From the NCBI GenBank assembly GCA_965233585.1, contig CBDDTI010000746.1, forward strand, positions 121,905 through 185,904: DNA of 64,000 nucleotides. Direction: 5' to 3'. The notes below the pieces were generated by a model. That model saw only the letters and a list, made by a program, of their open reading frames with translations. It was not told the DNA's origin and did no database searches. Source of the DNA: a bacterium (lineage in GTDB: Bacteria > SAR324 > NAC60-12). Shown here piece after piece: positions 4,260-64,000 of this stretch (the first letter of the stretch is position 1; every line of letters begins with the position of its first letter). Both the position numbers and the translations under genes were made by a program.

Positions 4260-4380
4260 TCTTTACAGAAAATAGATGTCTGACTATTTCGTATCTGAGA
4301 GCCAAAACAAAATATTTGTCACAAGGGAATAATTTATCTACAATTCTTTGAATGAATAGAGTCAGAAAAATCTTTGAGAA
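4260..4380 (-). pseudogene. Short N-terminal remnant of a third copy of the GT-B-like gene, inside ORF 4135..4440
   Basis: IQRIVDKLFPCDKYFV versus LQKIVDKMFPSDRYIV of the intact copy. The similarity is lost after ~30 aa. Confidence 0.45.
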
Positions 4381-4393
4381 GTCATTACAATAA

Positions 4394-5425: not shown

Positions 5426-5454
5426 AAAAATTTATATTCGTCTAAAAATATTGA

Positions 5455-6627: not shown

Positions 6628-6652
6628 ATTTTATCCTTATTATTAGAAATGA

Positions 6653-7726
6653 TTAGAAATTTAAATTTTTAATGATCTCAATGACTTGTTCAATATCTGT
6701 TAACTCCTGACTTGGTCCCGCAGGAAATATTAAAGCCTCTTGATCAAAAATATCTGCATTTTTAAAACTACGAGAAATATTAATATGTTTTGCTTTATCG
6801 ATACTCCCCATATCTCTACAACACATGACACCATTTTCATTTAAAATTCTAATGATTTTTTCCCTTTTGGGGGACAAAAAGATTGGTCTCATAGGTGTTT
6901 CTATTTCTGTATTCATTTCTAAGATTTTTAGGTAGGGGATGTTAGCTAAACCTTGTTCGTAAAGTTGATAGATTTCTCTTTGTCTTTGAACTAACTTTTC
7001 TATCTTTTCTATTTGATTTAAACCTATACTTGCATAAATATCAGAATATTTGAAGTTGTAAGACAAGCATAGAGGTTCAAATTCTTTTCTGACATCAAAG
7101 ACTCCTTGATTTCTTATTCTAAGAAGCTTTTCATAATCCTTATCGTTATGGCAAACGACAAAGCCACCAGATACAGTACTAAAAACTTTAGTAATTCCTA
7201 GAGAAAAACAACCAAATCTTGAAAGAGTTCCCGCATAACTATCATTTTGTTTAGATAAAATAGATTGTGCAGCATCTTCAACAATATCTATTTGATGTTT
7301 TCTAGCTATGTTCTGGATAGCTTCCATATTCACCATTTTTCCATTGAGGTGAACTGGTACTATAGCTTTAGTTTTACTAGTAATAAGTGTTTCAATCTGA
7401 TCTATGTTCATCAGCTGAGTTTCCTTATCGACATCTACACAGACAATTTTAACTCCTAAAATCATACCAGCATTGGCTGTTGCAATATAGGTTCTTGCTG
7501 GAATAATGATTTCATCGTATGGCTTAACTCCTATTGCCATAAAAGACATTGTCAAAGCAGCTGTACCACTTGAACAACAAACTACATAAGGAACTTTTAA
7601 CTTTTTGGCTAGTTTTTGTTCCAGTTCTTGCGTCAACACTCCTTGAGTTACAGTTTTGTTATTGATTGCTTGAGTGAGGCAATTGATATCTGTCTGATCA
7701 TATTTGATGTTCCATAAATTTATCAT
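6653..7726 (-). CDS. DegT/DnrJ/EryC1/StrS-family PLP-dependent sugar aminotransferase
   Basis: SSGTAALT and the FSLGITK lysine region. 357 aa. Confidence 0.8.
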   Translation of the reverse strand: MINLWNIKYDQTDINCLTQAINNKTVTQGVLTQELEQKLAKKLKVPYVVCCSSGTAALTMSFMAIGVKPYDEIIIPARTYIATANAGMILGVKIVCVDVDKETQLMNIDQIETLITSKTKAIVPVHLNGKMVNMEAIQNIARKHQIDIVEDAAQSILSKQNDSYAGTLSRFGCFSLGITKVFSTVSGGFVVCHNDKDYEKLLRIRNQGVFDVRKEFEPLCLSYNFKYSDIYASIGLNQIEKIEKLVQRQREIYQLYEQGLANIPYLKILEMNTEIETPMRPIFLSPKREKIIRILNENGVMCCRDMGSIDKAKHINISRSFKNADIFDQEALIFPAGPSQELTDIEQVIEIIKNLNF

Positions 7727-7734
7727 TTTATTTT

Positions 7735-8460
7735 TTAATTTATAGAGATTGAACCATTATTTTTTAATAAACTTTCACTTCCAATCAAAGAAATACCTCC
7801 ATCCATAACTATTTCTTGACCTGTAATATAAGAACAATCATCAGATAGTAAAAAATTTAAAGCATTATAAATATCATCAGAATTAGCAATTCTTTTTAGT
7901 GGGCATAATTCTTTATATATTTTTAAATTTTTTTCTTGATTATAGTATTTAGCATTACTTGACTTAATACAAGAAGATGGAGAAAGCATATTGACTCTAA
8001 TATTTTTTTCACCCAGATGTACTGCATAATATCTTACTAAAGATTTTAAGGCACTTTTAGCAACAGAATACGAAATAGGTTGTTCATAAATAAAATACTG
8101 AGTGACAATAGAACCAATGATTACTATAGAAGCATTACGATTCAAAAATTCTCTAATATTTTCCATGATTAAAAAAGTTGCCTTTACACTTATCTGGAAC
8201 TCTCCTTCAAAAGATTTTTTAGTATCTCCTCTATATCGCTGAAAGAAAACAACATAATCTATTTGTTTTTCAGTAATCTTCTTCAAGATATCTTCAGTAG
8301 AAGATTCATTTGCTAAATTAACTTGATAATATGAAATATTATGATTATTTTCTACAAATTCATTACCTATAACTGAAATTTTTACATTATTATGCAGTTT
8401 TTTAACATAAACAGCTCCTAAACCTGTTGTTCCACCTACTATTAAATAGTGTTTTTGCAT
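7735..8460 (-). CDS. Short-chain dehydrogenase/reductase (SDR)
   Basis: LIVGGTTGLG is the N-terminal TGxxxGxG motif. 241 aa. Confidence 0.7.
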   Translation of the reverse strand: MQKHYLIVGGTTGLGAVYVKKLHNNVKISVIGNEFVENNHNISYYQVNLANESSTEDILKKITEKQIDYVVFFQRYRGDTKKSFEGEFQISVKATFLIMENIREFLNRNASIVIIGSIVTQYFIYEQPISYSVAKSALKSLVRYYAVHLGEKNIRVNMLSPSSCIKSSNAKYYNQEKNLKIYKELCPLKRIANSDDIYNALNFLLSDDCSYITGQEIVMDGGISLIGSESLLKNNGSISIN

Positions 8461-8484
8461 TTCAAATTGTTAAGTACTAAAAAA

Positions 8485-9164
8485 TTATTTCGGATGTATT
8501 AAACTCAAATTTTTTGCTGTAACAAAAGCATAATCTCCAGTATATTGGACATGTTGTAAAACTTTTTCCCATTCTTTTTTTGAAAAAATAGTCGCACCCA
8601 ATAAAGTCCACATTTTAAATAAATCAAACTCTTCTTGAGTTTCATAAGAAGCTAAAGTGATAAAACTTTTTCCTTTTCCAACTCTCTGAATCTCTTTTAA
8701 ACAAGAAATACCATCAGCTAGATTGAGAGGATAAACAACGCCAATAGCTACAATAAAATCAAATTGTGCATTGCCAAACGAAAGTTTTTCATAACGTCCT
8801 GTTTGATATTTTTTTGGATAGAAAGCATCGCATGTTCAATAGCATAGCTAGAGATTTCATAACGTGAAAGTTTTAAATCAGGAAAAAGAGTTTTCAAATC
8901 ATGCAACAAGAAACCTTTTTCACAACCAATTTGTAAAATAGAAGCATTTTTTGGAAGTGAATAGCCTTTCATGATTCTTTCAGCAAAGACTTTCCAGCGG
9001 CCATCATATCGGTATCCACCATACCCATCATTACGTTCACCATCGTAATACCTTTGATCACGATAAGAAGCAATGATTCTATTTTCAATGGTTCGAGTCT
9101 TAGGACTAACCAGTCTATGATTTTTAGGAGGTGGATAATCTTGTAATAAATTGTATTCTCCCAT
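8485..9164 (-). pseudogene. SAM-dependent methyltransferase, paralog of 10150..10809, with a frameshift inside an A7/T7 homopolymer (8809..8815)
   Basis: The 138-aa ORF 8748..9164 aligns to the N-terminal two-thirds of the 219-aa paralog (YGG.Y...ILD/QIGC.KGF.L.D). After a +1 shift at the T7 run, 8485..8760 translates to ...FDFIVAIGVVYPLNLADGISCLKE...WEKVLQHVQYTGDY. That aligns to ...FDLVIAINTIHNLEKDACKKALKE...WKTFFQEASYTGDY. Confidence 0.75.
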
Positions 9165-9179
9165 TCTTTATTTTTAATA

Positions 9180-9374
9180 CTATATTAACATTAAAAAAAT
9201 ATTGATATTTAGAAGTAAAAAATTATCTTCAATATTATTGTTAGGATTAAACTTGATAAGATTACAGTGATTTTTCAATAAAGGTATTAAATCAGTTGCT
9301 ACAGTACCTTTGTAACCACTTATTAAGACTTTTTTATTTTTGATGAAACTCATATTTAGATTACAGCTATTCAA
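9180..9374 (-). pseudogene. Remnant of the N-terminus of an epimerase/dehydratase-like gene, paralog of 12942..13769
   Basis: MSFIKNKKVLISGYKGTVATDLIPLLKNHCNLIKFNPNNNIE versus MSFIEGKKVLWNGFRGSVGSDLSFLLKDHCNLINFDPAKNIE. Similarity ends after ~45 aa. Confidence 0.6.
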
Positions 9375-10127
9375 TTTGTGTAAGTTACTCCTTCCCCGTT
9401 ATCTACAGGCAACATGCAACCGGCAAAAATATGAGAATTTTCAGAAATGAGTAATTGAATCAAAGGCATCAGTTGTGATGTGTTCATCACAGGTACCGAA
9501 TTTGGCAAATGTTCTTGAAACCATTTTTCATAGATATCTGGTTTGTTCTCTTTCAAACGATCCATGGCACTATTATGACCGAGAAAAGCACTAGGCATAA
9601 TTCCTGAAATTGTGACTCCGCGTGTACTCATTTCTCTACCTAGATATCTGACATAAGCAGCTAATGCTGCTTTCACAGTATTGTATCCAACTGAAGCCAC
9701 TGCATAAGATGATGCGGTAGAACCAATATGCACTACATTTCCTTTTCGTTTTTCAATCATCAGAGGTATTAACGATTGGTTTAAAGCAATTCCTCCAGTT
9801 AAATTGACAGCGAGCAGTTGGTTGATTTCTTCAATAGTTAAAAGTGGTCTCCTCAAACCTAATCCGCCACCAGCACAATGAATAACATTATCAACAAATG
9901 GTGTAAATTTAAATAATTCTTTTTTAGCTATTGTAATACTTTTTTTGTCCAATAGATCTAGTTTGAGAACGAAATGATTGTATGGATTTTGAAAAGAAGA
10001 ACGTATTTCTTCTAATTCTTCCAGAGATCGTGCTGCTAAAATTATGTGATACCCTTGTTGTTCAAAAAAAAATAGCACACTGCTTTCCTAAACCTCTGGA
10101 AGATCCTGTGATGAGCAGGGTTTTCAT
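9371..10127 (-). pseudogene. SDR-family oxidoreductase with a frameshift inside an A9 homopolymer (10064..10072). Either pseudogene, phase-variable, or sequencing error
   Basis: An alternative frame from ATG 10127 encodes MKTLLITGSSRGLGKQCAIFF, the SDR TGxxxGxG N-terminus. It runs into the A9 tract. The rest of the SDR (EQQGYHIILAARSLEELEEI..., 235 aa) is in the listed ORF frame. Confidence 0.7.
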
Positions 10128-10149
10128 TTATCAATATATCAAATAGATT

Positions 10150-10809
10150 CTAAGGAATAAACCAATAATAATCTCCAGTATAACTGGCTTCTTGAAAAAA
10201 AGTTTTCCACTCTTCGGTGTGCATGTAAGTCAGGCCTGTCAAATTCCATGCATTCATTCTTTTCTTTTCTTCGTTATTCCTATAAGCATCATTGATGGTA
10301 AAAGCATCTTTTTTACTGACTCTCATCATTTCTTTCAGGGCTTTTTTACAAGCATCTTTTTCTAAATTATGAATCGTATTGATAGCAATCACCAAATCAA
10401 AACTATTATCTTCAAAAGGCAAATCATCGGCACTAGCCACTTGGACAAAGTCTTTGATTTCTGCTTTAGCATTAGCAATAGCATACTCTGATATGTCAAT
10501 CCCTCTGATTTCAAAAGTAGGATTATATTGTTTGAAATCATAAAGCATGAATCCTTTAGCACAACCTACATCTAAAATTGTTGCTCCATCTTGCAGATCA
10601 TAAAATTCTACAAAATCAGGCACTACTGGTTTCCAAAATCGTTCGCTATAATAATGCCCTCCATACCCTACTTTTCTGTCTCCATCAAAAAATTCTTGAC
10701 CAAATTGTCTAGCAATTTTTCGATCTTCTTCTGTTTTTTCTTCAAGCCTTTGAGCTAGATCTCTTTTGGCTCTAGGATAGTTTTTCAATAAATTAATCTC
10801 TTGTTGCAT
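10150..10809 (-). CDS. Class I SAM-dependent methyltransferase (219 aa)
   Basis: ILDVGCAKGF is motif I. It is the intact paralog of 8485..9164. Confidence 0.65.
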   Translation of the reverse strand: MQQEINLLKNYPRAKRDLAQRLEEKTEEDRKIARQFGQEFFDGDRKVGYGGHYYSERFWKPVVPDFVEFYDLQDGATILDVGCAKGFMLYDFKQYNPTFEIRGIDISEYAIANAKAEIKDFVQVASADDLPFEDNSFDLVIAINTIHNLEKDACKKALKEMMRVSKKDAFTINDAYRNNEEKKRMNAWNLTGLTYMHTEEWKTFFQEASYTGDYYWFIP

Positions 10810-10833
10810 GATTTTTTCTAAAAATTTGTGTTA

Positions 10834-11886
10834 TCAAAAGGGACCTTGAAACCAATCACCGGGAATATCATGGTGTTGATCTGATTTTAACAGAATTTTT
10901 TCATCTAATTTCCAATTCAGCATCTCAAATACAGTATGAACAATATCATTAGCGTTTTTGTAATAATGCTTGCTCAAATAATAACTTGTAGGGCTAGGCA
11001 TATTAGGAACAGCTAAAACACGAGGAGCAACCTTTAAATCTTGAAAACAGTGTTGACTCACTTTGGCTACAACCTCACTTGCAATACAAAAACTTTCATG
11101 CGATAAATCTACAGCTAACAATCTACCTGTTTTTTGAACAGAAGTTTTGATAGTTTCAAAATCCAAGGGTGATACACTTTTTAAATCAATCACTTCAGCA
11201 TGGATTCCTACTTGTTCTAAAATTTGACTTGCTTTAAGAGATTCTAAAGCCATTAAAGAATAAGCCACAATAGTTATATCTTTGCCTTGCTTAACAATTC
11301 TAGCTTGGTCTAAAGGAAGTTCAAAGTATTTGTCTCGTACTTCATCTTTGATGTTGTGTAACCAGCGATGCTCTAAAAATAAAATAGGATTAGGATCAAA
11401 AATACTTGCCAGTAAAAATCCTTTTGCATCTGATGGAGTAGTAGGCATTATGACTTTTAACCCCGGTACATGAGCAAACAAACTTTGCAAAGATTGAGAA
11501 TGCGTTGGTCCTTGTCCCCAACCTCTTCCAATAATCAAACGAATGGTAATAGGAACATGTGAAGCACCACCAAACATATAATGCCATTTTGCTGCATTAT
11601 TGACAAGTTGATCAAAGGCTAACAAAAAAAAATCTAACCTTTGATGGACAAACACACTTCTAACTCCATTCAAACTCGCACCTATGGCTATTCCCGTCAT
11701 AGCATTTTCACTGCAAGGTGTGTCGAAAACTCTTGCTTTTCCAAAAGTTTCTTGTAGCCCAGTAGTAGTTCCAAAAATAGCTTTAGGATCAGGGACTCCT
11801 AAACCATACACCAGCATATCACTATCTTTTTGCATAGCAATATGCAGTGCTTCATTGATAGCTTCAGCGAAGGTAATTGTTCTCAC
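10834..11886 (-). CDS. TPP-dependent 2-oxoacid dehydrogenase/transketolase-like E1 component, beta subunit
   Basis: 350 aa, with E1-beta/transketolase C-terminal-like architecture. It is translationally coupled (overlap 11883-11886) to the alpha subunit. Confidence 0.7.
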   Translation of the reverse strand: MRTITFAEAINEALHIAMQKDSDMLVYGLGVPDPKAIFGTTTGLQETFGKARVFDTPCSENAMTGIAIGASLNGVRSVFVHQRLDFFLLAFDQLVNNAAKWHYMFGGASHVPITIRLIIGRGWGQGPTHSQSLQSLFAHVPGLKVIMPTTPSDAKGFLLASIFDPNPILFLEHRWLHNIKDEVRDKYFELPLDQARIVKQGKDITIVAYSLMALESLKASQILEQVGIHAEVIDLKSVSPLDFETIKTSVQKTGRLLAVDLSHESFCIASEVVAKVSQHCFQDLKVAPRVLAVPNMPSPTSYYLSKHYYKNANDIVHTVFEMLNWKLDEKILLKSDQHHDIPGDWFQGPF

Positions 11887-12866
11887 AACGCTTCTTGGAA
11901 TAAGTGAGTGTAAATTTCACTTGGGGTTGGAAAAGGAGAAGACTGAGCAAAAGTAAAGGCATCATGGATTTCTTCTTGAATGTTATTTTCCATTTCCATC
12001 AAATCCTCTTGGCTCATGATTTGTATTTCTAAAAGTTTGTTTTGAAAATAACTGACAGGATCATGTTGGATCCAATCTTCAAATTCTTCTTGAGTTCGGT
12101 ATCCTATGTCATTGTCAAAATTCGTTCCGCAGTGTTCTCTATGCCTGTAAGTATGAAATTCTAAAAAATAAGGTTGTTTCTCCTTTTTAATAAATTCCAC
12201 TGCTTTTTTGCTTTGTTTCATGACTTCTAAAACATCATTACCATTGGCTTCTTCGGAAGTAATTCCAATCGCCTGAACCATTTCATGAATTTTTCTGTTC
12301 TTAGGTTGTCTCACAGCTAAAGGAGAATACACAGAATATAAATTATTTTCACAAATGAAAAGTACAGGTAAGTTTTGAAGAGCAGCAAAGTTAGCACTTT
12401 CATAAAAAACTCCTTCTTCAGTGGCCCCCTCACCAAAAAAAACAGTTGAAACTCTATCCTCTTGTTTGGTTTGAATGGATAATCCCAATCCAACCCCAAC
12501 TGGTATCGTGCCAGCCACAATAGCTGTACTTCCCATAAATCCAACTTTCGTATCTATCAAGTGCATAGAACCTCCCTTGCCTTGACAACAGCCTGTCACT
12601 TTGCCATAAATTTCAGCAATCATTGCTTTTAAACTTCCTCCCTTTGCTAAATAGTGAGCATGTGCCCTATGTCCAGACACTGCAAAATCATAGTCACTTA
12701 AACTAGCACATACTCCAACAGCAACAGCTTCTTGACCTATTGACAAATGGGTAGGACAACGCATTTCTTGATTAGGATATTCTTTTACTATTTCTTCCTC
12801 CACTGCTCGTATCCGTTTGAGATCAAACAATAGAGTTTTTAAAGATTCTTGAGATGCTTGAAACAT
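11883..12866 (-). CDS. TPP-dependent E1 component, alpha subunit
   Basis: FFGEGATEEG...ICENNLYS is a GDG-x(n)-NN TPP-binding-type motif. 327 aa. Confidence 0.7.
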   Translation of the reverse strand: MFQASQESLKTLLFDLKRIRAVEEEIVKEYPNQEMRCPTHLSIGQEAVAVGVCASLSDYDFAVSGHRAHAHYLAKGGSLKAMIAEIYGKVTGCCQGKGGSMHLIDTKVGFMGSTAIVAGTIPVGVGLGLSIQTKQEDRVSTVFFGEGATEEGVFYESANFAALQNLPVLFICENNLYSVYSPLAVRQPKNRKIHEMVQAIGITSEEANGNDVLEVMKQSKKAVEFIKKEKQPYFLEFHTYRHREHCGTNFDNDIGYRTQEEFEDWIQHDPVSYFQNKLLEIQIMSQEDLMEMENNIQEEIHDAFTFAQSSPFPTPSEIYTHLFQEAL

Positions 12867-12941
12867 AGTATCAATTAAAATTTTTATAGAATTACAACTG
12901 AACGATGATATATCTTTTAAAAAGTTTTATTATGAATTGTA

Positions 12942-13769
12942 TTATTTCATCATAGTTGAATGCTTTGGAGAATTAGAAAAGAGTAAATCTGTCCAATAAT
13001 CTATAGATTTTTTAGCATCTAATGCTAGATCATAGTCTTTCATTAATTTATCTACACTAATACTAAAATGATTCAGATTTTCAGAAGATTGTATAATTTG
13101 CGATTTAGATTGTAGTTTTTCTTTCAAATAGACGACTAAATCTAACAAAGTATATTCAACCGAACTAGCAAAGTTTAAAATGTCAAATTTTTTATTAAAA
13201 TCATTGTTTAAAAGAAATTTAAAAATATCATATGGATTTACTAATAAATTAAATTTTTTCAAACTATTAGTTAAGATTACGTCTTGATTCGTAATAAGTT
13301 TATCCAATAATCTGAAAAATAAGTGAGGGTGGATATTTTTTTTAGAAGTAAGTATTGCCGGAAAACGCAGACATAAAACATTCATATCAACACTTTCTAA
13401 CATCTTTTCACCCACTAGTTTTGTCAACCCGTATAAGTCAGGTGTGGATAAAGTATGTTTTTCATCAATATTTTCTTGGTTCGCACTACCATAAACCGAA
13501 TTACTTGAGAAAAACACAAAGTTTTTGATTTGATTTCTATCACAAAACCTAATAACGTCCTGTAAGAAGATAATGTTAGATTGTATTACCTTTTCATAAC
13601 TATGAACAGGACTTGCACCTGCTAAATGCAAAAAAATATCTGCTTCAATATTCTTGGCAGGGTCAAAATTGATAAGATTACAATGATCTTTTAACAAAAA
13701 ACTTAGATCAGAACCTACAGATCCTCTAAATCCATTCCACAAAACTTTTTTACCTTCAATAAAACTCAT
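12942..13769 (-). CDS. NAD-dependent epimerase/dehydratase-like protein (275 aa)
   Basis: KKVLWNGFRGSVGSDL is a Rossmann-like N-terminus. It sits in a sugar cluster. Confidence 0.5.
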   Translation of the reverse strand: MSFIEGKKVLWNGFRGSVGSDLSFLLKDHCNLINFDPAKNIEADIFLHLAGASPVHSYEKVIQSNIIFLQDVIRFCDRNQIKNFVFFSSNSVYGSANQENIDEKHTLSTPDLYGLTKLVGEKMLESVDMNVLCLRFPAILTSKKNIHPHLFFRLLDKLITNQDVILTNSLKKFNLLVNPYDIFKFLLNNDFNKKFDILNFASSVEYTLLDLVVYLKEKLQSKSQIIQSSENLNHFSISVDKLMKDYDLALDAKKSIDYWTDLLFSNSPKHSTMMK

Positions 13770-13805
13770 AGCATTTTTATGAATCTAACATATTTGATAG
13801 TTTTT

Positions 13806-14924
13806 TCAGAACGTGTTCTCTGTGGAATGAAAGAATTGTCCAATGGACTGACAAACAAACTCTATTTGTCCGTCTTTTAAAAAAGGATAAATAGGAAGAC
13901 TCACAATTTCTTTAATAATCTTTTCAGTGATTGGAAAATCACTTTGTTGATAACTTAATCTTTTAGCAATCGGTTGGAGATGCAAAGGAACAGGATAATG
14001 AATTTTGGTTTCTATGCCCTGCTCCAAAAGGAACCTCATCAACTCATCTCTCTGATTTGCATGGACTTGAATGACAAAATTATGATAAACACTTCTCAAA
14101 TTTTTATTAGGAGGAAGACACTTAACAACGTCGTGTAAATTCTCATAATAAAATTTTGCAATTTCCTGATAACGTTTATTCCATTTTGCCAGACGCTTCA
14201 GTTTTACCAAACCAAAAGCCGCTTGTAAATTATCTAATCTGGAATTGACGCCCCAAACAATCGCTTCATCTCTGTTTTTCAATCCATAATTGCGTAAAAG
14301 TCTCAGCTGACTTGCAATATTTTCATCATGGGTAGTAATGATGCCTCCATCTCCCATCAAGTTAAGATTTTTTAGTGGGTGTAAGCTAAAACAACCCGCA
14401 TCAGACAATCCCCCAGTTTTTTTAGCATAGTATGTGGCGCCAATGGATTGAGCTGCATCTTCAATCACGTGGAGACAATGCTTTTTAGCAATAGAATTGA
14501 TTTCATTCATTTTAGCAGGTCTTCCATTCAAATGGACAGGAATGATTGCTCTAGTTTTTGATGTGATGGCTGGCTCAATGAGGTTGGGGTCAATATTAAA
14601 ATCTTCAGCAACATCAACTAAAACAGGCTTTGCTCCAGCACTGATGACAGACGTCATAGTAGCTAGAAAAGAGTGAGCAGGAATAATCACTTCATCATCT
14701 CTCTCTACTCCTAAAACCTTCAAACAAAGCGTGATTGCATCACCACCATTTGCGACACCAACAGCAAACTTTGTTTCACAAAAATCAGCAACTGCTTGCT
14801 CAAAACGCTCCAATTCCTCTCCTAAAATATAAGAACCTTTAGAGCAAACTTGATCAAAAGTTTCTATCAATTCCTCTCTAATTTCTTGATATTCTAAAGA
14901 CAAATCAATAAAAGGAACTCTCAA
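13806..14924 (-). CDS. DegT/DnrJ/EryC1-family sugar aminotransferase
   Basis: GCFSLHPLKNL is the lysine motif. 372 aa. Confidence 0.8.
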   Translation of the reverse strand: MRVPFIDLSLEYQEIREELIETFDQVCSKGSYILGEELERFEQAVADFCETKFAVGVANGGDAITLCLKVLGVERDDEVIIPAHSFLATMTSVISAGAKPVLVDVAEDFNIDPNLIEPAITSKTRAIIPVHLNGRPAKMNEINSIAKKHCLHVIEDAAQSIGATYYAKKTGGLSDAGCFSLHPLKNLNLMGDGGIITTHDENIASQLRLLRNYGLKNRDEAIVWGVNSRLDNLQAAFGLVKLKRLAKWNKRYQEIAKFYYENLHDVVKCLPPNKNLRSVYHNFVIQVHANQRDELMRFLLEQGIETKIHYPVPLHLQPIAKRLSYQQSDFPITEKIIKEIVSLPIYPFLKDGQIEFVCQSIGQFFHSTENTF

Positions 14925-14925
14925 T

Positions 14926-16071
14926 TTAACCTTTATAAAAAGTTTTAATCAATTCAATCACTTGGTCTTGCTGTGCTTGAGTGATAAATTCATGAACAGG
15001 CAGAGAAAGGCAGTGATTTGCAGTGTATTCGCTGACAGGAAAGTCTCCTTTTTGATGATTCAAAAAAGAAGAGGCAGGTTGAAGGTGCATAGGGACTGGA
15101 TAATGCACTTTAGCATCAACTCCATTTTGGATTAAGTAGTCTTTTAATTCATCTCGCCTTTCACAAGTGAACATGTACAGATGATACACATGTTTTTTAT
15201 GAACTTCTCGTTTAGGAATTTTGATCTGTTCTATATTTTCTAACTCCTGGTCAAAATAATGAGCATGTTGGATTCGTTTTGCTGTGATATTTTCAATGTG
15301 ATGATCCAATAAATGTTGTCCCACTACTGCTTGAATAGTGTCTAATCTTGAGTTGTAAGCAAATTCTTGACAAACATTTCTTGAGACCAGCCCGTGGTTG
15401 CGAATCAATCTTAATTGTTCAACGATTTTTTTGTCGTTAGAAACGATGAGTCCCCCATCTCCCCAAACATTCAAATTCTTTAACGGATGCATGCTAAAAC
15501 AAGAGGTGGTGCCAAAATCACCTATTTTCTGGCTCTGATATTCTGATAAAATAGCGTGGCAAGCATCATAAACAATCGGGACGCAATGTTTTTTAGCAAG
15601 ATTTTCTAGGCAGATACAATCACAGGGGTTTCCTGACCAATGCACAGGCACTATCGCCTTAGTCTTTGGAGTCATTGCACTCTCAAGCTGAGAAACATCT
15701 ATGTTGAAATCATCTTTAATATCTACAAAAACAGGCTTTGCTCCAGCAGTCACAATCGCTCCTACAGTTGCATAAAAAGTAAAAGAAGTTGTGATGACTT
15801 CATCACCTTCTTTGACACCAAGAGCCTTTAAGCTTAGGAAAAGTGCATCTGTCCCAGAGCCAACTCCAATGGCATATTTTGCGCCAACTGCTTCTGCAAA
15901 ATTTTCTTCAAACTGATCTACAGCTTTTCCCAAAGTAAAATCGTTTTCAAGTACAACTTGCTCTATCTTTTTGAAGATTTCTTGATAATCGCTAAATTGT
16001 TCTTTCAGATAGTTATGTTTGATAGTCAATTCGCTATCTTTTAGATATTGTTCTGGATAAAAGTTTTTCAT
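14926..16071 (-). CDS. DegT/DnrJ/EryC1-family sugar aminotransferase (tandem paralog)
   Basis: SCFSMHPLKNL. 381 aa. Confidence 0.8.
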   Translation of the reverse strand: MKNFYPEQYLKDSELTIKHNYLKEQFSDYQEIFKKIEQVVLENDFTLGKAVDQFEENFAEAVGAKYAIGVGSGTDALFLSLKALGVKEGDEVITTSFTFYATVGAIVTAGAKPVFVDIKDDFNIDVSQLESAMTPKTKAIVPVHWSGNPCDCICLENLAKKHCVPIVYDACHAILSEYQSQKIGDFGTTSCFSMHPLKNLNVWGDGGLIVSNDKKIVEQLRLIRNHGLVSRNVCQEFAYNSRLDTIQAVVGQHLLDHHIENITAKRIQHAHYFDQELENIEQIKIPKREVHKKHVYHLYMFTCERRDELKDYLIQNGVDAKVHYPVPMHLQPASSFLNHQKGDFPVSEYTANHCLSLPVHEFITQAQQDQVIELIKTFYKG

Positions 16072-16267
16072 GCGATTCCTTCAATAATAAATCTAAACAG
16101 GTTTGGTATTTAAGTCTTCTTTAGAATCTATTTCTACCCAACCTCCTTCTATGTAAATTGGAGTAGCATCTAATAAATTATCTATGATCAATTGAAGAAA
16201 ACTTGTCATATGCATCTCATTCATCGAGTAATGTCGTAATTTTTTTGTAAATCAGAGAAGTTAAACC

Positions 16268-17209
16268 TTAGCTAATCTGCAAATTTTGCATCACTTTTAT
16301 ATTGTAAAATTTATTTTCATCTTTTAAGACTCCCTTATGATACAAATTAGCAATCTCATCAATTGCATCATCTACACAAAAGGAAGGTTGAAAACCTGTA
16401 TTCAGGAGCTTATCAGAATTAAGCCTGTAAGAACGATGGTCTTGAGTATCTATCATTTCTATTTTGGCATCCACCTTTTGAATGATCTTTTCAGCAATAT
16501 TCAATATGGAAATGTTCTCAAAACCTGCATTATAGATGCCTTGTAGTTCTTGACCTTGCTTGATACAGTGCAAATAAACTTCTATCATGTCCTTGATGTG
16601 TATGTTAGGTCTGATATTCTTCTCTCCAAAAACTTTAATCACGCCATTTTTCAAAGCGTGCATAGACAGCATATTGACTGCTGTATCTAACCGCATTCTA
16701 GGAGAATACCCACAAACTGTTGCAGGTCTAATAATTTGGACAAGTATGTCTTTAGTATAGCTCAATAAAACTCGTTCACTAACCATTTTGGTTTTATTGT
16801 AATCACTGATAGGGACTAAATCTAGGTCTTCAGTGACTTGCTCTTCTTCTTTGATGCCATAAACACTGCCACTACTTGCATAAATGAATTGCTTAACATC
16901 ATTTTTGATCGCTTTTTCTACTAAAAACTTTGTTGCTAAAACATTGGTTTCCCAAGAAAGTTTGGGATTTAAATCACTACATGGGTCATTTGCGATATTT
17001 GCCAGATGAATCAAAACATCAACATTCTGCATATTGATTGCTTGAACATCTCTAATATCACCCTTAATGACTTCTAAGTTTTGGTGTTCTTGTAAAAACT
17101 CTCCAAACCAAAATGTGTCTATGACACGCAGCTGGTGTGATTCTTTAAGTAACCTTTCTACCAAAGGAACTCCAACATATCCACCGCCACCTAATATTAA
17201 GATATTCAT
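16268..17209 (-). CDS. NAD-dependent sugar epimerase/dehydratase (UDP-glucose 4-epimerase-like)
   Basis: MNILILGGGGYVGVPLV is the GxxGxxG motif. 313 aa. Confidence 0.75.
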   Translation of the reverse strand: MNILILGGGGYVGVPLVERLLKESHQLRVIDTFWFGEFLQEHQNLEVIKGDIRDVQAINMQNVDVLIHLANIANDPCSDLNPKLSWETNVLATKFLVEKAIKNDVKQFIYASSGSVYGIKEEEQVTEDLDLVPISDYNKTKMVSERVLLSYTKDILVQIIRPATVCGYSPRMRLDTAVNMLSMHALKNGVIKVFGEKNIRPNIHIKDMIEVYLHCIKQGQELQGIYNAGFENISILNIAEKIIQKVDAKIEMIDTQDHRSYRLNSDKLLNTGFQPSFCVDDAIDEIANLYHKGVLKDENKFYNIKVMQNLQIS

Positions 17210-17211
17210 GT

Positions 17212-18264
17212 TTATTCTTTATGTATATAGTTTAGATTTTGTTTCAAAAGTGTTTCCAAATTATTTTTGACCCAACAGATACAATCATCTAACCCTTGTT
17301 CAAGACTCGTATTGAAGTCTGTACAAAATTCATTGGTAAATTGGGAAGAATCTAGCAAGTACGCTTTATCTTTACCTTTTCGTTCTTCTCCAAAATTGAC
17401 ATACTTGTCAAAAGAAATATTTAGTAAATCTGCAATCTTCACCACTAAATCTTTAATACTAATTTGCTCTTGGGTAGAAAGATGATAAAGACTTCCAATC
17501 TTGGATTGTTTCATAATGAGGTAAGTTGCTTGAGCCACATCCTGAATATGAATAAAACTTCTAATTGATGTTCCTCCACCATGCAATGTCAAATTTTGAT
17601 TGGTTAAAAAGTACAAGATTGTTTTTGGAATGATGCGATAAAGTTGTTGACAAGCACCATAAACATTAGCCGCTCTTGTCCACACCACGGGGAAGCCGTA
17701 GGTATTCAGCAGCACTTTTAGGTGCATGTCTATACTTGCTTTAGAAACAGCATAAGGTGTGCTTGGTTGATAATGCGTATTTTCTTGCACTAGACCTTCC
17801 GTATTGCCATAGATTTCAGGAGTAGAAATTTGCACATACTTTTGAATAGAAGTCTCATCCTTTAAATGTTCTAAAAGTTCAACATGAGACAAAAAATTGG
17901 CATGATACCAATGGCTTGGATTCTCAAAACTTTCAGCAACCATACACAGAGCAATAAAATTGACAATGTAGTCAGGCTTAAAAGTTTTGATAAAATCTAC
18001 AATTCCTTGTGTTTGATGGTTTAAGTTGTATTGATAAAAAGTGAAGTTTTTGTAATTAGAGTGGTTTTTGTAGGGAAGAAAGACTTCGTTAATTTCATCA
18101 GATCTGCTGATGCCCACCACCTCATCACCTTGACTCAAACAATGGTTGATGAAGTGAGAACCTGAAAACGAATTACTGCCTAAAACGAGAACTTTACTCA
18201 TTTGACCACGTCTAAAAGCTAGAACAAAGCCCAACATTGTCCTGTAATGTAACCCAAATGTCAA
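17212..18264 (-). CDS. NDP-sugar 4,6-dehydratase-like NAD-dependent epimerase/dehydratase. The likely true start is the internal Met at ~18198 (MSKVLVLGS...)
   Basis: VLVLGSNSFSGSHF is a Rossmann motif, and YAVSKAS is the YxxxK catalytic motif. Confidence 0.7.
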   Translation of the reverse strand: MTFGLHYRTMLGFVLAFRRGQMSKVLVLGSNSFSGSHFINHCLSQGDEVVGISRSDEINEVFLPYKNHSNYKNFTFYQYNLNHQTQGIVDFIKTFKPDYIVNFIALCMVAESFENPSHWYHANFLSHVELLEHLKDETSIQKYVQISTPEIYGNTEGLVQENTHYQPSTPYAVSKASIDMHLKVLLNTYGFPVVWTRAANVYGACQQLYRIIPKTILYFLTNQNLTLHGGGTSIRSFIHIQDVAQATYLIMKQSKIGSLYHLSTQEQISIKDLVVKIADLLNISFDKYVNFGEERKGKDKAYLLDSSQFTNEFCTDFNTSLEQGLDDCICWVKNNLETLLKQNLNYIHKE

Positions 18265-18472
18265 AATGATTGTTCGTTCAAAATTTTGGTAGTGCTACTT
18301 CTTGCTTTTTGGAACAATCAATGGTTTAATAGTGCGAATTTTGGTGTCTAATCGGAGTCAAAGAAAATTTGCACGTACGTTGTGTTTTTGATTTTTCGGG
18401 AAATTTTTTGAGATTTTTTACGAAAGAAGATTTAAACTGCCCCTAACTTGTCATGTTGTGAATGTTGATTGA

Positions 18473-50979: not shown

Positions 50980-51257
50980 CTGACAACATTTTTAGACACT
51001 CACTGACTTAAACCCCTTAGCATAGTGGATTCAATAGATTTTTTTCAAAAAAACTCCAATCAATCAGATTTTTCTCAAAACTCTAACTTTTTCTGACCTT
51101 CCAACCTGTCTATTTTCCAATGTTCTAAAAAATCTTAAAAACTCCTTAAATTTTCTTCAAAATCCTGCATCTTTGAGGTTTTGGAAGGTTTGATAGTTAT
51201 CAAAAGTGGCAGAAGGCATCATTCATTTTTTGAAGAAAGTGAAACACTTCGTCCCTC

Positions 51258-51290
51258 CGTCATTGCTCACCTTGTCCGCAATCTCATTCT
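51258..51290. repeat. Degenerate copy of the palindromic repeat family seen at 61.25-61.46 kb
   Basis: CGTCATTGCtcACCTtGtCCGCAATCTC versus the consensus CGTCATTGCGGGACCTGACCCGCAATCTC. It lies immediately 3' of the SBBP lipoprotein gene. Confidence 0.5.
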
Positions 51291-51309: not shown

Positions 51310-52413
51310 CTACCTCCCAAACTTGATTAAAAGCATGTCCTCATTTCCTGAATTGGTGTGTCCATCAAAATTTCCTCCAGAGAATCCTGTCACGTAAACA
51401 TTGCCTGCTGAATCCACACTCACTCCCTTTCCTGCATCACTACTGGTAGTGCCAAGCAACTTAGACCTTTTTTTGACACCTGAAGTATCATACTTGATTA
51501 AAAATATGTCAAAGTCTCCTGAATGGGTCTTTCCATCAAAAGCTCCTGAAGAGCTTCCTGTCACGTAAACATTGCCTACTGAATCCACACTCACTCCATT
51601 TCCTGCATCACTACTGGTAGTGCCAAGCAGTTTTGACCACTGCTTGTTGCCTGAAGTATCATACTTGATTAAAAACATATCCTTACCTCCTGAATTGGTC
51701 TGTCCATCAAAGGCTCCTGCAGAGAATCCTGTCACGTAAACATTGCCTGAAGCATCCACACTCACTCCATGTCCTCTATCATCACCGCTAGTGCCAAGCA
51801 GTTTTGACCACTGCTTGTTGCCTGAACTGTCATACTTGATTAAAAACATGTCCTCTTTTCCTGAATTGGTCTTTGTATCAAAAGCTCCTTTAGAATATCC
51901 TGTCACGTAAACATTGCCTGCTGAATCTACACTCACTCCTAATCCGTCATCACGAGATCGACTGCCAAGCAGTTCAGACCATTGTTTAGCCAAGTGTTCA
52001 GCAATGGCTTGGTTGTGGCAAGCCCATTCAGAAGCAGAAGTCTTGCCTGATGCTTTCACACGAACGCAGAGTTTGTCTTTGGCAATGGCATCATCTCCAA
52101 AACTAAAAGGGCTGCTGCAATCAGTAGGAGTTGTGCCTCCATCTTTGGAACATTGATAGCTTTGCCCTGAAGTGGTGGCAAAGGTCAAGGTTCTGCCTGA
52201 AATAGCAAGAGAAGTTGGCGGCTTTGGTGGCTTGGTAGCTTCAGCAGTGTTGTCATCTGATGGACTACGTTTGTCAGTGCAAGAAACGAGGACACTGAGA
52301 CCAAGCAGGACTGAACATTTCTTCAAAGAAGAAGGTTTAAGAAATGATGCAAAAGCATCGGTGCAGGCAACAAGTGCTTTGATAAACGTTTTGATTGTAT
52401 GACGTGCAAACAT
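51310..52413 (-). CDS. Surface lipoprotein with four SBBP beta-propeller repeats. It is a member of a paralogous modular lipoprotein family
   Basis: The signal peptide with lipobox is LVSC. Four repeats read GNVYVTG(Y/F)S.GAFDG.TNSG..DMFLIKYD.SGNKQWSKLLGT (PF06739-like). The N-terminal 40 aa and an internal 58-aa module are near-identical at nucleotide level to the gene at 61833. Confidence 0.8.
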   Translation of the reverse strand: MFARHTIKTFIKALVACTDAFASFLKPSSLKKCSVLLGLSVLVSCTDKRSPSDDNTAEATKPPKPPTSLAISGRTLTFATTSGQSYQCSKDGGTTPTDCSSPFSFGDDAIAKDKLCVRVKASGKTSASEWACHNQAIAEHLAKQWSELLGSRSRDDGLGVSVDSAGNVYVTGYSKGAFDTKTNSGKEDMFLIKYDSSGNKQWSKLLGTSGDDRGHGVSVDASGNVYVTGFSAGAFDGQTNSGGKDMFLIKYDTSGNKQWSKLLGTTSSDAGNGVSVDSVGNVYVTGSSSGAFDGKTHSGDFDIFLIKYDTSGVKKRSKLLGTTSSDAGKGVSVDSAGNVYVTGFSGGNFDGHTNSGNEDMLLIKFGR

Positions 52414-52437
52414 TTGATGGACTCCATTTAGAGGTTA

Positions 52438-52518
52438 GATAAAAAAACAACATTCAACACAATGAATGTCGTCATGGTAAAACTCTTGGTTTGAAAAAAA
52501 ACATCATCTGATTTTCAA
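52438..52518 (-). promoter_or_regulatory. Conserved 5' leader of the SBBP lipoprotein gene. Hairpin 1 is 52491-52518. A terminator-like hairpin 2 with a T-run is 52438-52469 and ends 24 nt before the ATG
   Basis: On the coding strand, TTGAAAA...TTTTCAA forms stem 1 and ACATTCA-ttgtgt-TGAATGT followed by TGTTTTTTTA forms stem 2. Upstream is the conserved GGCTTGTAT-T10-GTACTTGCATAGT promoter-like block (52545-52580). Confidence 0.5.
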
Positions 52519-52748
52519 GGAAAAGAGTTGAATAAAAACCAAAGCTATACTATGCAAGTACAAAAAAAAAATACAAGCCACGACTTAGAATATTTGAAGT
52601 TTTCTTGAGTTGGTGTAATTTTTGTCAAGAGAAGGAAGGACTGGCAAAAAGTGGTCAAGTTTGGGGTTAAAAAGTTTTTTCAATATAAATTTTGAATATT
52701 TGACAAGTTTTTGCTATACTTCGAAGATTTTGCATTGCCTAATAAATC

Positions 52749-61131: not shown

Positions 61132-61254
61132 AACTCCCATAATTTTTGACCTTCAGCCTATTCATTTCCCTAGTTTCTTCACTTTCTGATTCCCCCTTTG
61201 GTGAAGGTGTGCTTGCCTTCAGCAAGTAGGGTGTTTTTTTCGTTACCACACAAC

Positions 61255-61455
61255 CGTCATTGAGGGCTTGACCCGCAATCTCTCTTGTCTTTTTCTCACT
61301 TCCCCGTCATTGCTGACCTTGAAAAAAGTCATTGCGGGACCTGACCCGCAATCTCTCTTTTATTTTTTGAGATTCCGCATCAAGTGCGGAATGACTGAGA
61401 GGTTTTGTAGGCGTGTCTTTTCGTCATTGCGGGACCTGACCCGCAATCTCCCTTG
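61255..61455. repeat. Cluster of three full copies and one half copy of a 29-32 bp palindromic REP-like repeat, plus a second small palindrome
   Basis: The copies are at 61255-61286 (degenerate), 61305-61320 (half), 61328-61359 and 61422-61455. The core ATTGCGGG-acctga-CCCGCAAT is a perfect 8-bp inverted repeat. A second palindrome, TTCCGCA-tcaag-TGCGGAA, is at 61373-61391. The spacing is irregular (50-95 bp). Confidence 0.7.
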
Positions 61456-61673
61456 TTTTTTCACAATAACCCTCATCTTTCCTGACCTCCCAATCTGCTC
61501 CTTTTTTCCTTTTTTTGAAAAATCTTCAAAACTTTTTAAAACTTTTTAAATTTTTTTCAAAACCTTTCAAACCCTTATCTTTTCTGACTTCCTGACCTTC
61601 CTCTTTTTCCAAAAAATCTTTAAAATTCCTTAAAAAACTAAAAAATGACCCAAAAATTAAAAACGTTGGCTTG

Positions 61674-61832
61674 TTTTTTTTTTTTGTACGTGCATAATGC
61701 CCGTTTTGGCTTTTCGCAAAACTCTCATCTTGAAAACAAATGAGGTTTTCATTTCAAGAGGGGAGTTTTTCGTGTGACAGCACCCGCAGGGGGTGCTGTT
61801 GTTTTGTTTCATCTCTCATTGGAGTTAATCAA
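61674..61832 (+). promoter_or_regulatory. Conserved promoter and leader of the FN3 lipoprotein gene. T12 tract, extended -10 TGCATAAT (61691-61698), hairpin 1 (61728-61759) and terminator-like hairpin 2 with a T-run (61778-61809) 23 nt before the ATG
   Basis: TCTTGAAA...TTTCAAGA is an 8-bp stem. CAGCACCC-gcagg-GGGTGCTG followed by TTGTTTTGTTT is an 8-bp GC-rich stem with a U-run. The same architecture, with different stem sequences, lies upstream of the paralog at 52413. The SD GGAG lies between hairpin 2 and the ATG. Confidence 0.5.
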
Positions 61833-64000
61833 ATGTTTGCATTTCGTACGATGAAAGTGTTCCCCAAAGCACTTGTTGCCCTCACCGATGCTTTGGCATC
61901 ATTCCTCAAACCTTCTTGCCTTAAAAAATGCTCAATCCTGCTTGGCGCCAGTGTTGTGATTGGCTGCGGTGAAGATGGTGCTGTGTCAGTGTCAGCCAAA
62001 CACACTGCCCAGACCAAGCCAGAGTCAAGCGAGTCTGTGTGTCTGGAGATTCCCCAAGCCCTGACGCAAGGCACAGGCAACCTTGCCGTCTTCAATTCAC
62101 TGGGTCAAGATGTCCTGCTGTCGTATTCCAGCAAGCTGAATACAGATGATGTGCTTGCCGTCATTGGTGCCAAGCAAAAAGGGGTCAAAGTGGACATTTC
62201 CAAAAGGACTTCTTCCATCGTCACCTTGTTCGCCTTCAAGATGCCAGCTGTCCAAGACTACTTTGAAGCAGACTGCGATGATTCCCAAATGCCAACGGCT
62301 TTTATGCAGAGTGGGTTCATTCCATCAGCCAAATCCAGTTTTGTGATAGGCACTAAAGAATCCAAGTCAGACTATGGCATGTTGCTGGTGCGAAACAATC
62401 GTGATGAGAAGGTGTCTATTTTTCAAGGCAGTTCGCAGAATCAGCAAATTGGCGTCATTGCCAGCAAGGAACTGGACTACCGAATCAAGATTCCTGTCGG
62501 TGCTAGACTGCTGATGTTTTACCCACACACAGATTCAGGAGAGATTGACTTCCAAAATCCTGTCCTTGTGAAGAACCTAGTCTTTAACAAAGATGACAAA
62601 AAACGCATCATCATTCCTGAACAACAAGTCTTGAGCGTGGCAAAAATCAACTTTACTAATTCTTCTGACCAAGATGTGATGCTGACCGTGAAGAACAGTG
62701 ATGAGGCGTTGTTTAATGTAGAATGCAGTTGTGCAGATTTTAACAAAAATTCTGTGTCAGCCAAGATGATTCTGGTCAATGGAAAGTATTATGCTGATGA
62801 CTTCTTCTTTTCTGTCATTAGTTTAGACACAGGTCAAACTTTGATTCGGAGTAAGCCTTTTCAGCTGGACAAAAACACGAATGTGAATTTTACATTGAAC
62901 AAGAATTTGACGCTGACGAAGGGCTTGGTCAATGCCGTTGTTGCGAAGAATCAAGAGCCAGAGAAGCCAGAAGACTTGAAAATCAGCCAAGTGACCTCTA
63001 ATAGTTTGCAATTAAGCTGGTCGCCTTCTGCAGACGCTGATGGCGAAGTGACAGGTTACGAAGTCTCTCACAAAACAGGCAATGGAAACTGGCAAGTCGG
63101 CACAGACACCACTCAAACAATCGTCATCGTCTCTGGTTTGCAACCTGCCACTGCCTACACCTTTCGTGTCCGTGCCAAAGATGATGAAAATGCTTGGAGT
63201 GATTATGAAGAAAGCAAACCTGTCCAGACGCTTCCTGCTGCCAACAAACCACCTGAAAAACCCAGCAACATCAGCACCAGCGATGTCACTGCAGACAGCA
63301 TCAAGGTCTCATGGACTGCTGCCACAGATTCTGACGGACAAGTGACAGGCTACGAAATCTCTTACAAAACAGGCAATGGATTCTGGTCAGGCACAAGCAC
63401 GACAGCCAACACGGCATACACCTTTCAATCGCTGCAACCTGCCACCAGCTACACTTTCCGCATTCGTGCCAAAGATGATGACGGAGATTGGAGTCCTTAC
63501 CAGACAAGCACCGCTGTCAGCACTGCACCCAATGCACCAACTTCCCTTGCAGTGTCTGCCAGAAGCCTGACCTTTATGATGACTTTAGGCAACAGCTATG
63601 AATGTTCCAAAGATGCAGGCACCACAAAAACCAACTGCAACAGCCCCTTTAGTTTTGGTGATGATGCCATTGCCAAAGACAAGCTGTGCGTCCGTGTCAA
63701 AGCATCAGGCAACACTCCCGCATCAGACTGGGCTTGCTATGACCAAGACATTGCTCAAAAAACTCCTGCTGTCAGCCAAGCAGTCACTTGGAATTTTGAC
63801 AACGGCAACAAGCCAAATGGCTTAACAGGCAACTGGTCTGTTGTCTCTGGTGGGGCAAACAGCACTTCCAAAAGCCTCAAATCTGCAAACATTGGCAGCA
63901 ATCAACAAACCTGCGTCCAAACCACACGCAATGTCTCAGCAGGAGACGTGGAATTTCAATACAAAGTCAGTTCAGAACAAAATTATGACGAACTCTTCTT
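61833..64000 (+). CDS. Partial CDS (3' end outside window): large surface lipoprotein with two fibronectin type III domains. It is a paralog of the SBBP lipoprotein in its signal peptide and one internal module
   Basis: ATG at 61833. MFAFRTMKVFPKALVALTDALASFLKPSCLKKCSILLGASVVIGCGED is a signal peptide with a VIGC lipobox. The FN3 domains at ~62967-63225 and ~63253-63525 contain LQPATAYTFRVRAKDD and LQPATSYTFRIRAKDD. The module at 63564-63737 (SLTFMMTLGNSYECSKDAGTTKTNCNSPFSFGDDAIAKDKLCVRVKASG) is ~85% nt-identical to 52021-52195. The frame is open to base 64000. The ORF track omits it because there is no stop inside the window. Confidence 0.8.
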   Translation, partial: MFAFRTMKVFPKALVALTDALASFLKPSCLKKCSILLGASVVIGCGEDGAVSVSAKHTAQTKPESSESVCLEIPQALTQGTGNLAVFNSLGQDVLLSYSSKLNTDDVLAVIGAKQKGVKVDISKRTSSIVTLFAFKMPAVQDYFEADCDDSQMPTAFMQSGFIPSAKSSFVIGTKESKSDYGMLLVRNNRDEKVSIFQGSSQNQQIGVIASKELDYRIKIPVGARLLMFYPHTDSGEIDFQNPVLVKNLVFNKDDKKRIIIPEQQVLSVAKINFTNSSDQDVMLTVKNSDEALFNVECSCADFNKNSVSAKMILVNGKYYADDFFFSVISLDTGQTLIRSKPFQLDKNTNVNFTLNKNLTLTKGLVNAVVAKNQEPEKPEDLKISQVTSNSLQLSWSPSADADGEVTGYEVSHKTGNGNWQVGTDTTQTIVIVSGLQPATAYTFRVRAKDDENAWSDYEESKPVQTLPAANKPPEKPSNISTSDVTADSIKVSWTAATDSDGQVTGYEISYKTGNGFWSGTSTTANTAYTFQSLQPATSYTFRIRAKDDDGDWSPYQTSTAVSTAPNAPTSLAVSARSLTFMMTLGNSYECSKDAGTTKTNCNSPFSFGDDAIAKDKLCVRVKASGNTPASDWACYDQDIAQKTPAVSQAVTWNFDNGNKPNGLTGNWSVVSGGANSTSKSLKSANIGSNQQTCVQTTRNVSAGDVEFQYKVSSEQNYDELF

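Follow-up and report, generated by a model that had tools for sequence, protein, structure and literature searches.

A duplicated 5' leader with a terminator-like hairpin upstream of two lipoprotein genes in a SAR324 bacterium

We analysed a stretch of 64,000 nucleotides (nt) from a bacterium of the SAR324 lineage NAC60-12 (assembly GCA_965233585.1, contig CBDDTI010000746.1, positions 121,905 to 185,904), which is called the window below. It contains two paralogous lipoprotein genes, A on the minus strand and B on the plus strand, and each of them is preceded by a copy of one leader, named copy A and copy B after its gene. The leader comprises a promoter-like block with a long T tract, an imperfect hairpin (hairpin 1), a terminator-like hairpin followed by a U-rich tract (hairpin 2), and a Shine-Dalgarno (SD) sequence. 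By its sequence features, it is an unclassified 5' untranslated region (UTR) with a putative intrinsic-terminator signal, which is a known kind of element.

The shared module and its hairpins

Copy A lies at 52580-52411 (minus strand) and copy B at 61667-61835 (plus strand); they share one module, measuring 170 and 169 nt respectively from TGGCTTGT to the ATG (Table 1). Using blastn, positions 52580-52292 (minus) matched positions 61667-61954 (plus) with 73% identity over 293 nt (E = 4e-38), and the 5' edge of the homology was abrupt, at TGGCTTGT. A first-pass annotation of the window had claimed the same block upstream of the ATG of both paralogs, and this was confirmed by reading, alignment and blastn; the element it delimited was also the right one, except that its end for copy A at 52438 lost the SD and the ATG, the true end being 52411. 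Only two copies were present in the window according to blastn, a pattern search with three mismatches and an nhmmer profile made from both copies, and two matches of the pattern were reached in none of 100 shuffles.

From 5' to 3', the module consists of TGGCTTGT, the T tract, GTAC(T/G)TGCATA(G/A)T, about 19 nt of single strand, hairpin 1, a run of four or five U with a short linker, hairpin 2 with its perfect stem, the U-rich tract, CTCT-N4-GGAG, 8 nt and the ATG, after which about 40 signal-peptide codons are conserved in both paralogs. The features are kept in register. Hairpin 2 starts at module position 108 in both copies, and the outer stem of hairpin 1 starts at position 52 in both (AACTCTT in A, AAAACTCTC in B); this stem has 2 more bp in copy B, so that the AACTCT core common to both copies is offset by 2 nt.

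Table 1. Positions of the features of the two leader copies and of the genes downstream (window coordinates; ΔG, folding free energy; z, z score).
Feature	Copy	Position	Strand	Details
Promoter-like block	A	52549..52580	-	TGGCTTGTA-T10-GTACTTGCATAGT; candidate -35 TTGTAT (52576-52571), 16-nt spacer, candidate -10 CATAGT (52554-52549)
Promoter-like block	B	61667..61698	+	TGGCTTG-T12-GTACGTGCATAAT; candidate -35 TTGTTT, candidate -10 CATAAT
T10 homopolymer in putative promoter spacer	A	52562..52571	-	second-longest homopolymer in the 64 kb
T12 homopolymer in putative promoter spacer	B	61674..61685	+	longest homopolymer in the window
Hairpin 1	A	52481..52529	-	outer stem AACTCTT/AAGAGTT, inner stem TTGAAAA/TTTTCAA, then UUUU; ΔG -9.1 kcal/mol, z = -1.5
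Hairpin 1	B	61718..61769	+	outer stem AAAACTCTC/GGGAGTTTT, inner stem TCTTGAAA/TTTCAAGA, then U-rich; ΔG -17.9 kcal/mol, z = -4.0
Hairpin 2, terminator-like	A	52446..52473	-	stem GACGACATTCA/TGAATGTTGTT, loop 6; 11 bp, 3 G-C; ΔG -12.8 kcal/mol, z = -4.5
Hairpin 2, terminator-like	B	61774..61802	+	stem GTGACAGCACCC/GGGTGCTGTTGT, loop 5; 10-12 bp, 6 G-C; ΔG -19.0 kcal/mol, z = -3.7
U-tract after hairpin 2	A	52439..52445	-	seven U including stem end; tail score -5.0 to -5.7
U-tract after hairpin 2, interrupted	B	61803..61812	+	TTTGTTTCAT; tail score -4.6
CTCT-N4-GGAG, 8 nt, ATG	A	52411..52433	-	ATG 52413-52411; weak CTCT/GGAG pairing over SD, identical or near-identical in B
CTCT-N4-GGAG, 8 nt, ATG	B	61813..61835	+	ATG 61833-61835
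Lipoprotein A	A	51310..52413	-	367 amino acids (aa); long n-region, lipobox LVSC at Cys45, shared Cys-containing domain, SBBP beta-propeller repeats
Lipoprotein B	B	61833..64000	+	full-length protein P0126, 1204 aa, exits the window; N-terminal module, unknown domain, two FN3, shared Cys domain, Kelch repeats

In both paralogs hairpin 2 has all the features by which an intrinsic terminator is recognised in sequence and lies between the only conserved promoter-like block and the SD, as the first-pass annotation had proposed. An intrinsic-terminator stem was taken as about 5-14 bp with G-C pairs and a loop of 3-8 nt, and stem length, G-C pairs and loop of hairpin 2 were within these limits in both copies. 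A U-rich tract directly follows the stem (UUUUUUUAU in A, UUUUGUUUCAU in B). The hairpin was flagged by a terminator scanner in both copies, and its fold was equalled by none of 500 dinucleotide shuffles of each copy. Tails scored with the TransTermHP formula gave -5.0 (A) and -4.6 (B), against -2.1 for the one plausible 3'-end terminator of the window, which lies at 61210-61228 after a HAD-hydrolase gene. A census of intergenic terminator-like sites over the 64 kb (at least 6 bp, at least three G-C pairs and at least six T of 8) yielded five sites, and the two copies of hairpin 2 had the longest stems among those upstream of gene starts. They are the strongest terminator-like signals of the window.

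Canonical intrinsic terminators were essentially missing from the approximately 30 gene 3' ends of the window that are followed by a gap, which suggests that the organism relies mainly on other modes of termination. Since the gene 3' ends are essentially without such signals, the leader hairpins are not genomic background. The neighbour upstream of copy A encodes an mrp/NBP35-type ATPase, is divergent and has a good promoter of its own on the opposite strand; hairpin 2 of copy A thus has no co-directional gene upstream that it could terminate. Hairpins 1 and 2 were also considered as terminators of the opposite strand, and this was rejected since no T-run follows either of them on that strand.

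The leader body was about 53-58% identical between the copies, against 69% at the third codon positions of the adjoining coding region, and the region from the SD to the ATG was 80-100% identical. In the coding region identity was highest at the second codon position, followed by the first and then the third, and this usual ordering indicates that the region is translated. In a structure-guided alignment, which matches the minimum free energy (MFE) fold of each copy, the lower 6-7 bp of hairpin 2 are conserved with two one-sided changes that preserve wobble pairs, and the apical part is unrelated in sequence (TTCA/TGAA in A versus GCACCC/GGGTGC in B) and fully paired in both; three double changes and two extra pairs were obtained. 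When unconstrained drift was crudely simulated at 31-45% divergence, a hairpin of the grade of hairpin 2 was retained in 2-8% of trials (B to A) and 0% (A to B). By this comparison hairpin 2 is maintained, as a predicted structure, despite its replaced apical half.

Hairpin 1 is a long imperfect hairpin with a loop of 14-16 nt. It was significant in copy B, with 1 of 500 dinucleotide shuffles as stable, and marginal in copy A (38 of 500). It is kept mainly as sequence, with a single double change (T-A to C-G) in the outer stem; the inner stems TTGAAAA/TTTTCAA and TCTTGAAA/TTTCAAGA had been read as covarying, but both contain one and the same core, TTGAAA/TTTCAA, whose register is shifted. Drift simulation in the weak direction for hairpin 1 gave 26-32% retention and was uninformative.

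Both hairpins coexist in the MFE structure, and the pair probabilities of hairpin 2 were 0.84-1.0. Blocking its 3' arm, or forcing its 5' arm to pair upstream, cost 11-15 kcal/mol, and the alternatives differed between the copies. The attenuation proposed in the first-pass annotation thus survived in part: the terminator-like leader before the SD was retained, and the alternative-fold switch was not, the antiterminator pairing between the 3' arm of hairpin 1 and the 5' arm of hairpin 2 being absent (alternatives at least 11 kcal/mol worse and not shared). No conserved open reading frame (ORF) was found in the leader, as frame, length and sequence differed between the copies and none of the ORFs had an SD. 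An ATG in the loop of hairpin 1 opens an 11-residue peptide in copy A and is in frame with the main ORF in copy B (61740; 31 additional codons, 61740-61832), which is why the mechanical ORF call extends gene B into the leader. Searching Rfam 15 gave nothing at the gathering threshold in the whole window, and the matches of both leaders at E up to 10 were at chance level and far below threshold.

Promoter-like block, lipoprotein family and surroundings

The promoter-like block was identical at 29 of 32 positions between the copies and forms the 5' boundary of the homology. It was flagged in neither copy by a consensus promoter scan, because the -35 matches at 3 of 6 positions only. The block is a modest match to sigma-70 promoters; we infer its promoter role, and the position of the transcription start site (TSS), from its conservation and its place at the edge of the homology. 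An extended -10 had been seen in TGCATAAT at first reading, which is not canonical, as the TG directly abuts the hexamer CATAAT. A sigma-54 reading of TGGC...TTGC was rejected, the two elements being 19 nt apart and the sigma-54 consensus having about 7 nt between them. A promoter between hairpin 2 and the SD was likewise rejected on reading the sequence, since no conserved -10/-35 fits there in either copy.

In both copies a long homopolymer lies between the putative -35 and -10, as in phase-variable promoters. The total length of the block is preserved between the copies (TA+T10 versus T12). In mycoplasmas, the lipoprotein genes vlp, maa2 and vmm are turned on or off when a homopolymer between -35 and -10 changes in length (PMC2268961), and by analogy with these promoters the T tracts are candidates for slipped-strand phase variation. 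No recombinase or invertase was found nearby among the 39 window proteins, covering part of the window, that were scanned against Pfam.

The proteins encoded downstream combine SBBP, FN3 and Kelch propeller modules in mosaic fashion, with the lipobox at Cys45 (LVSC in A, VIGC in B). The 45 N-terminal codons occupy 52413-52279 in A and 61833-61967 in B, and the n-region of about 30 residues, which is unusually long and conserved (MFA..T.K.F.KALVA.TDA.ASFLKPS.LKK), precedes the hydrophobic core and the lipobox. Neither Pfam nor NCBIfam has a model for this N-terminal module. With an exhaustive HMMER search it was also detected in P0124 (539 aa, 81% identity over residues 1-150) and P0125 (1673 aa), whose genes lie on further large contigs that seem to belong to the same assembly, and the module is thus common to at least four paralogs. 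The cassette is probably carried by at least four genes. A second lipobox-like Cys at residue 17 (LVAC/VVSC) occurs in copy A, P0124 and P0125 and is Leu in B, and in P0125 the ASF.KPS.LKK segment of the n-region is internally duplicated.

Other paralogs detected with HMMER share only the internal Cys-containing domain. This domain of about 80 residues (..SYECSKDGGTT...CSSPFSFGDDAIAKDKLCVRVKASG..W.C) is encoded at 51997-52229 in A (minus) and 63526-63758 in B with 79% nucleotide identity, and the assembly encodes at least five further large surface proteins that contain it. Few relatives of this orphan domain were detected, namely 24 of 1.84 billion proteins at E up to 0.001. A word-indexed protein search with the N-terminal module gave no match, a weak negative, as protein A itself was missed though present in the collection. 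Scanning genome contigs with the promoter-block pattern gave a single chance match, in an Acetatifactor promoter; metagenome scans with N-terminal peptide patterns and an SD-ATG DNA pattern gave only chance matches inside unrelated genes, and scans of viral contigs gave no match. The proteins of the window were singletons from one assembly. The best non-self relatives of the Mrp protein were at most 62% identical, those with names being mostly labelled SAR324 or Lambdaproteobacteria, and at the mrp locus of the nearest retrievable relative there was no divergent lipoprotein gene.

Repeats lie in the gaps around both lipoprotein genes. A palindromic repeat resembling repetitive extragenic palindromic (REP) elements, CGTCATTGCGGGACCTGACCCGCAATCTC, has near-exact copies at 61327-61355 and 61422-61450, between the HAD-hydrolase gene and copy B, and degenerate copies at about 61256-61290 in the same gap and at about 51258-51290, just past the stop of lipoprotein A. 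A 93-aa ORF overlapping these repeats (61268-61549) is probably spurious. Upstream of copy B, a G-poor low-complexity block rich in A, T and C (TTCTGACCTTCC ... AAAAATCTTAAAA.CTCCTTAAA) lies at 61457-61634 (plus), and the same block recurs with about 70% identity at 51069-51162 (plus), downstream of gene A, so that the two lipoprotein genes have the same types of intergenic repeat beside them. Positions 1-18300 of the window are of low GC content (29-37%, against about 40% elsewhere) and encode DegT-type aminotransferases, epimerases/dehydratases, methyltransferases and E1 dehydrogenase components. This region looks like a sugar-modification or polysaccharide biosynthesis island.

Interpretation of the leader

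Our tentative preference, as a possible reading of the sequence, is a shared expression cassette in which hairpin 2 would be a real premature terminator, with read-through either dependent on a factor or constitutively partial. The duplicated cassette would serve mosaic surface lipoproteins and would consist of a sigma-70-like promoter with a T-tract spacer, a 5' UTR of about 130 nt, the SD and an extended signal peptide; a homology that starts exactly at the promoter-like block is as expected for such a unit of promoter, leader and signal peptide. Hairpin 2 and its U-tract would be a selected intrinsic-terminator signal, at which transcription would mostly end, about 25-30 nt short of the start codon, and lipoprotein synthesis would depend on read-through past hairpin 2. 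With no competing antiterminator fold, read-through would be set by a trans factor or would amount to a constant leak by which expression is damped. Conceivable factors are a protein or elongation-factor paralog and a complex of a small RNA (sRNA) with Hfq, either of which would recognise hairpin 1 or the conserved single strand at the 5' end. The terminated product would be about 105 nt in length and would be shaped like an Hfq-type sRNA, in which a single-stranded 5' part leads into a hairpin and, past a U-rich linker, a terminator hairpin ends in a poly-U tail.

Several observations weigh against this preference. The stem of hairpin 2 in copy A is rich in AU and GU pairs, with three G-C pairs only, and termination there could therefore be inefficient, and the scarcity of canonical terminators leaves the reliance of this organism on intrinsic termination in doubt. 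The promoter is a modest match to the consensus which the scanner did not flag, and the TSS is placed by it. No trans factor of the KOW/NusG type was found among the 39 window proteins scanned. The covariation claimed for hairpin 2 in the first-pass annotation depends on the alignment: the three double changes stand in the structure-guided one, and RNAalifold on a MAFFT alignment returned the seven lower pairs of hairpin 2 only, with no double change. This covariation is weak since only two leaders were read. Moreover, templated quasi-palindrome mutation can yield perfect stems without selection.

The main alternative, a rather unlikely one, is a stability and translation element of the ompA type. 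Here the hairpins would shield the mRNA of an abundant surface protein from decay that depends on the 5' end, the U-rich parts by hairpin 2 and the ribosome-binding site (RBS) would be docking sites for Hfq and sRNA, and hairpin 2 would be mostly read through. A UTR of about 130 nt that runs up to the SD and holds two hairpins with single strands between them agrees with it, and so do the CTCT-N4-GGAG pairing and the RBS region, which are the most conserved parts of the leader, the AU/GU-rich stem in copy A and the seemingly small use of intrinsic terminators by this genome. However, a protective hairpin is normally at or very near the mRNA 5' end, and hairpin 1 would start at least 10 nt from it if the TSS is about 7 nt after the -10. 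The U-tract immediately behind a perfect stem, which both copies have kept, would also be superfluous in a stabiliser, and in copy B hairpin 2 has been strengthened, with six G-C pairs.

It is unlikely, to a further degree, that the segment from the promoter to the U-tract is primarily an sRNA gene in sibling copies, with read-through driving the lipoprotein gene in a dual leader/sRNA role. The promoter-like block, 5' single strand, hairpin, U-rich linker, strong terminator hairpin and U7 or U-rich tail form a layout that is the usual architecture of Hfq-binding sRNAs; in detail, GUUUU(A/U)C.. is followed by hairpin 2 and then by U7 or the U-rich tail. The strongest terminator-like hairpins in a window whose mRNAs are mostly without them would also suit an sRNA. 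But the likely seed regions, which are the 5' single strand and the loops, are the least conserved (27-37% identity), the unit always lies 23-27 nt upstream of a conserved SD and ATG and is co-duplicated with the signal peptide, and the window holds no stand-alone copy and no Rfam match. The dual role cannot be separated by sequence alone from the premature terminator of a shared cassette.

Slightly more doubtful is that the hairpins are passengers of a duplicated or gene-converted 5' segment and have no regulatory role, or that transcription starts elsewhere. This would be in line with the comparison of two sequences only, with the conservation of hairpin 1 mainly as sequence, with the 38 of 500 shuffles that match hairpin 1 of copy A, and with a promoter known only from its likeness and position. 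Passengers would, however, hardly explain the perfect pairing of hairpin 2 despite its replaced apical half, which drift simulations rarely keep, feature positions identical to the nucleotide in leaders only about 55% identical, or the rank of the two copies of hairpin 2 as the top terminator-like signals in the window.

Two stacked switches in a lineage-specific cassette are improbable. In this arrangement a slippage-prone T tract (ON/OFF) and a leader terminator read through via a dedicated factor on hairpin 1 would choose among the lipoproteins, and the system, equally improbable, would by analogy resemble Bacteroides capsule control or LoaP on single lipoprotein genes. A classical cis attenuator (riboswitch or leader peptide) with folds responding to a ligand or to ribosome stalling is highly improbable: it would fit the place of hairpin 2 between the promoter-like block and the SD, but there is no alternative fold within 11 kcal/mol, no conserved leader ORF and no Rfam match even at E = 10, and the simple hairpin and about 20 poorly conserved nt located 5' of hairpin 2 are too little for an aptamer.

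Comparison with known systems and meaning

The leader of the dfn operon in Bacillus velezensis, one of the dfn and mln operons read through by LoaP, carries a recognition hairpin followed by a terminator, lacks an alternative fold, and is controlled by processive antitermination through a NusG paralog (PMC12691694). Like the LoaP leaders, the module described here has a small conserved hairpin upstream of an intrinsic-terminator signal, no antiterminator fold, and an element shared by more than one locus. In LoaP leaders read-through is set by a trans factor, which here is only proposed. The dfn hairpin has a UNCG tetraloop; no such hairpin is present here, where the loop of the long, imperfect hairpin 1 is 14-16 nt and not UNCG. 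The dfn leader is 417 nt in length and precedes very long operons, in contrast to a UTR of about 130 nt before single genes, and the LoaP host belongs to the Bacillota, unlike the SAR324-like host. Because the UNCG hairpin is missing and the window proteins scanned included no NusG paralog encoded next to copy A or copy B, LoaP offers an analogy of logic and not of membership. The RfaH ops element GGCGGTAGnnTG was not found either, GGCGG occurring in neither 170-nt module.

The 5' UTR of E. coli ompA, on an abundant envelope-protein mRNA, measures about 130 nt and has two stem-loops parted by single strands, with a U/A-rich segment by the RBS for Hfq and sRNA. Its first hairpin is 5'-terminal and its second is without a terminator-grade U-tract. 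There is no sequence similarity between the ompA 5' UTR and the leaders here. Hfq and MicA are described as acting at the ompA translation start (PMC7509114).

Premature intrinsic terminators in 5' UTRs, as revealed by 3'-end mapping, lie between the TSS and the SD and give an sRNA-like product. This layout is the one predicted here. Many such leaders have a riboswitch, an upstream ORF or an sRNA as trigger, whereas no trigger is identifiable in the present leaders. In the variable-lipoprotein families of mycoplasmas, a conserved 5' cassette of promoter, leader and prolipoprotein signal is fused to divergent mature regions. These cassettes are not known for a leader terminator. The mycoplasma genes vlp, maa2 and vmm (PMC2268961) are alike in having a homopolymer tract in the -35/-10 spacer, and their phylum is unrelated to that of the SAR324-like host.

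SAR324 bacteria are abundant and largely uncultured, and to our knowledge essentially no RNA biology or RNA regulators are known from them. The leader is a well-formed candidate with two readable copies in one genome. If hairpin 2 really terminates, it would be the first leader from the SAR324 lineage to be described as a candidate for cis regulation, and a whole family of surface lipoproteins, with at least four paralogs bearing the N-terminal module, would share one checkpoint cassette for their expression. A putatively slippage-prone T tract in the promoter, combined with the leader terminator, hints at variable surface-protein expression in a free-living bacterium.

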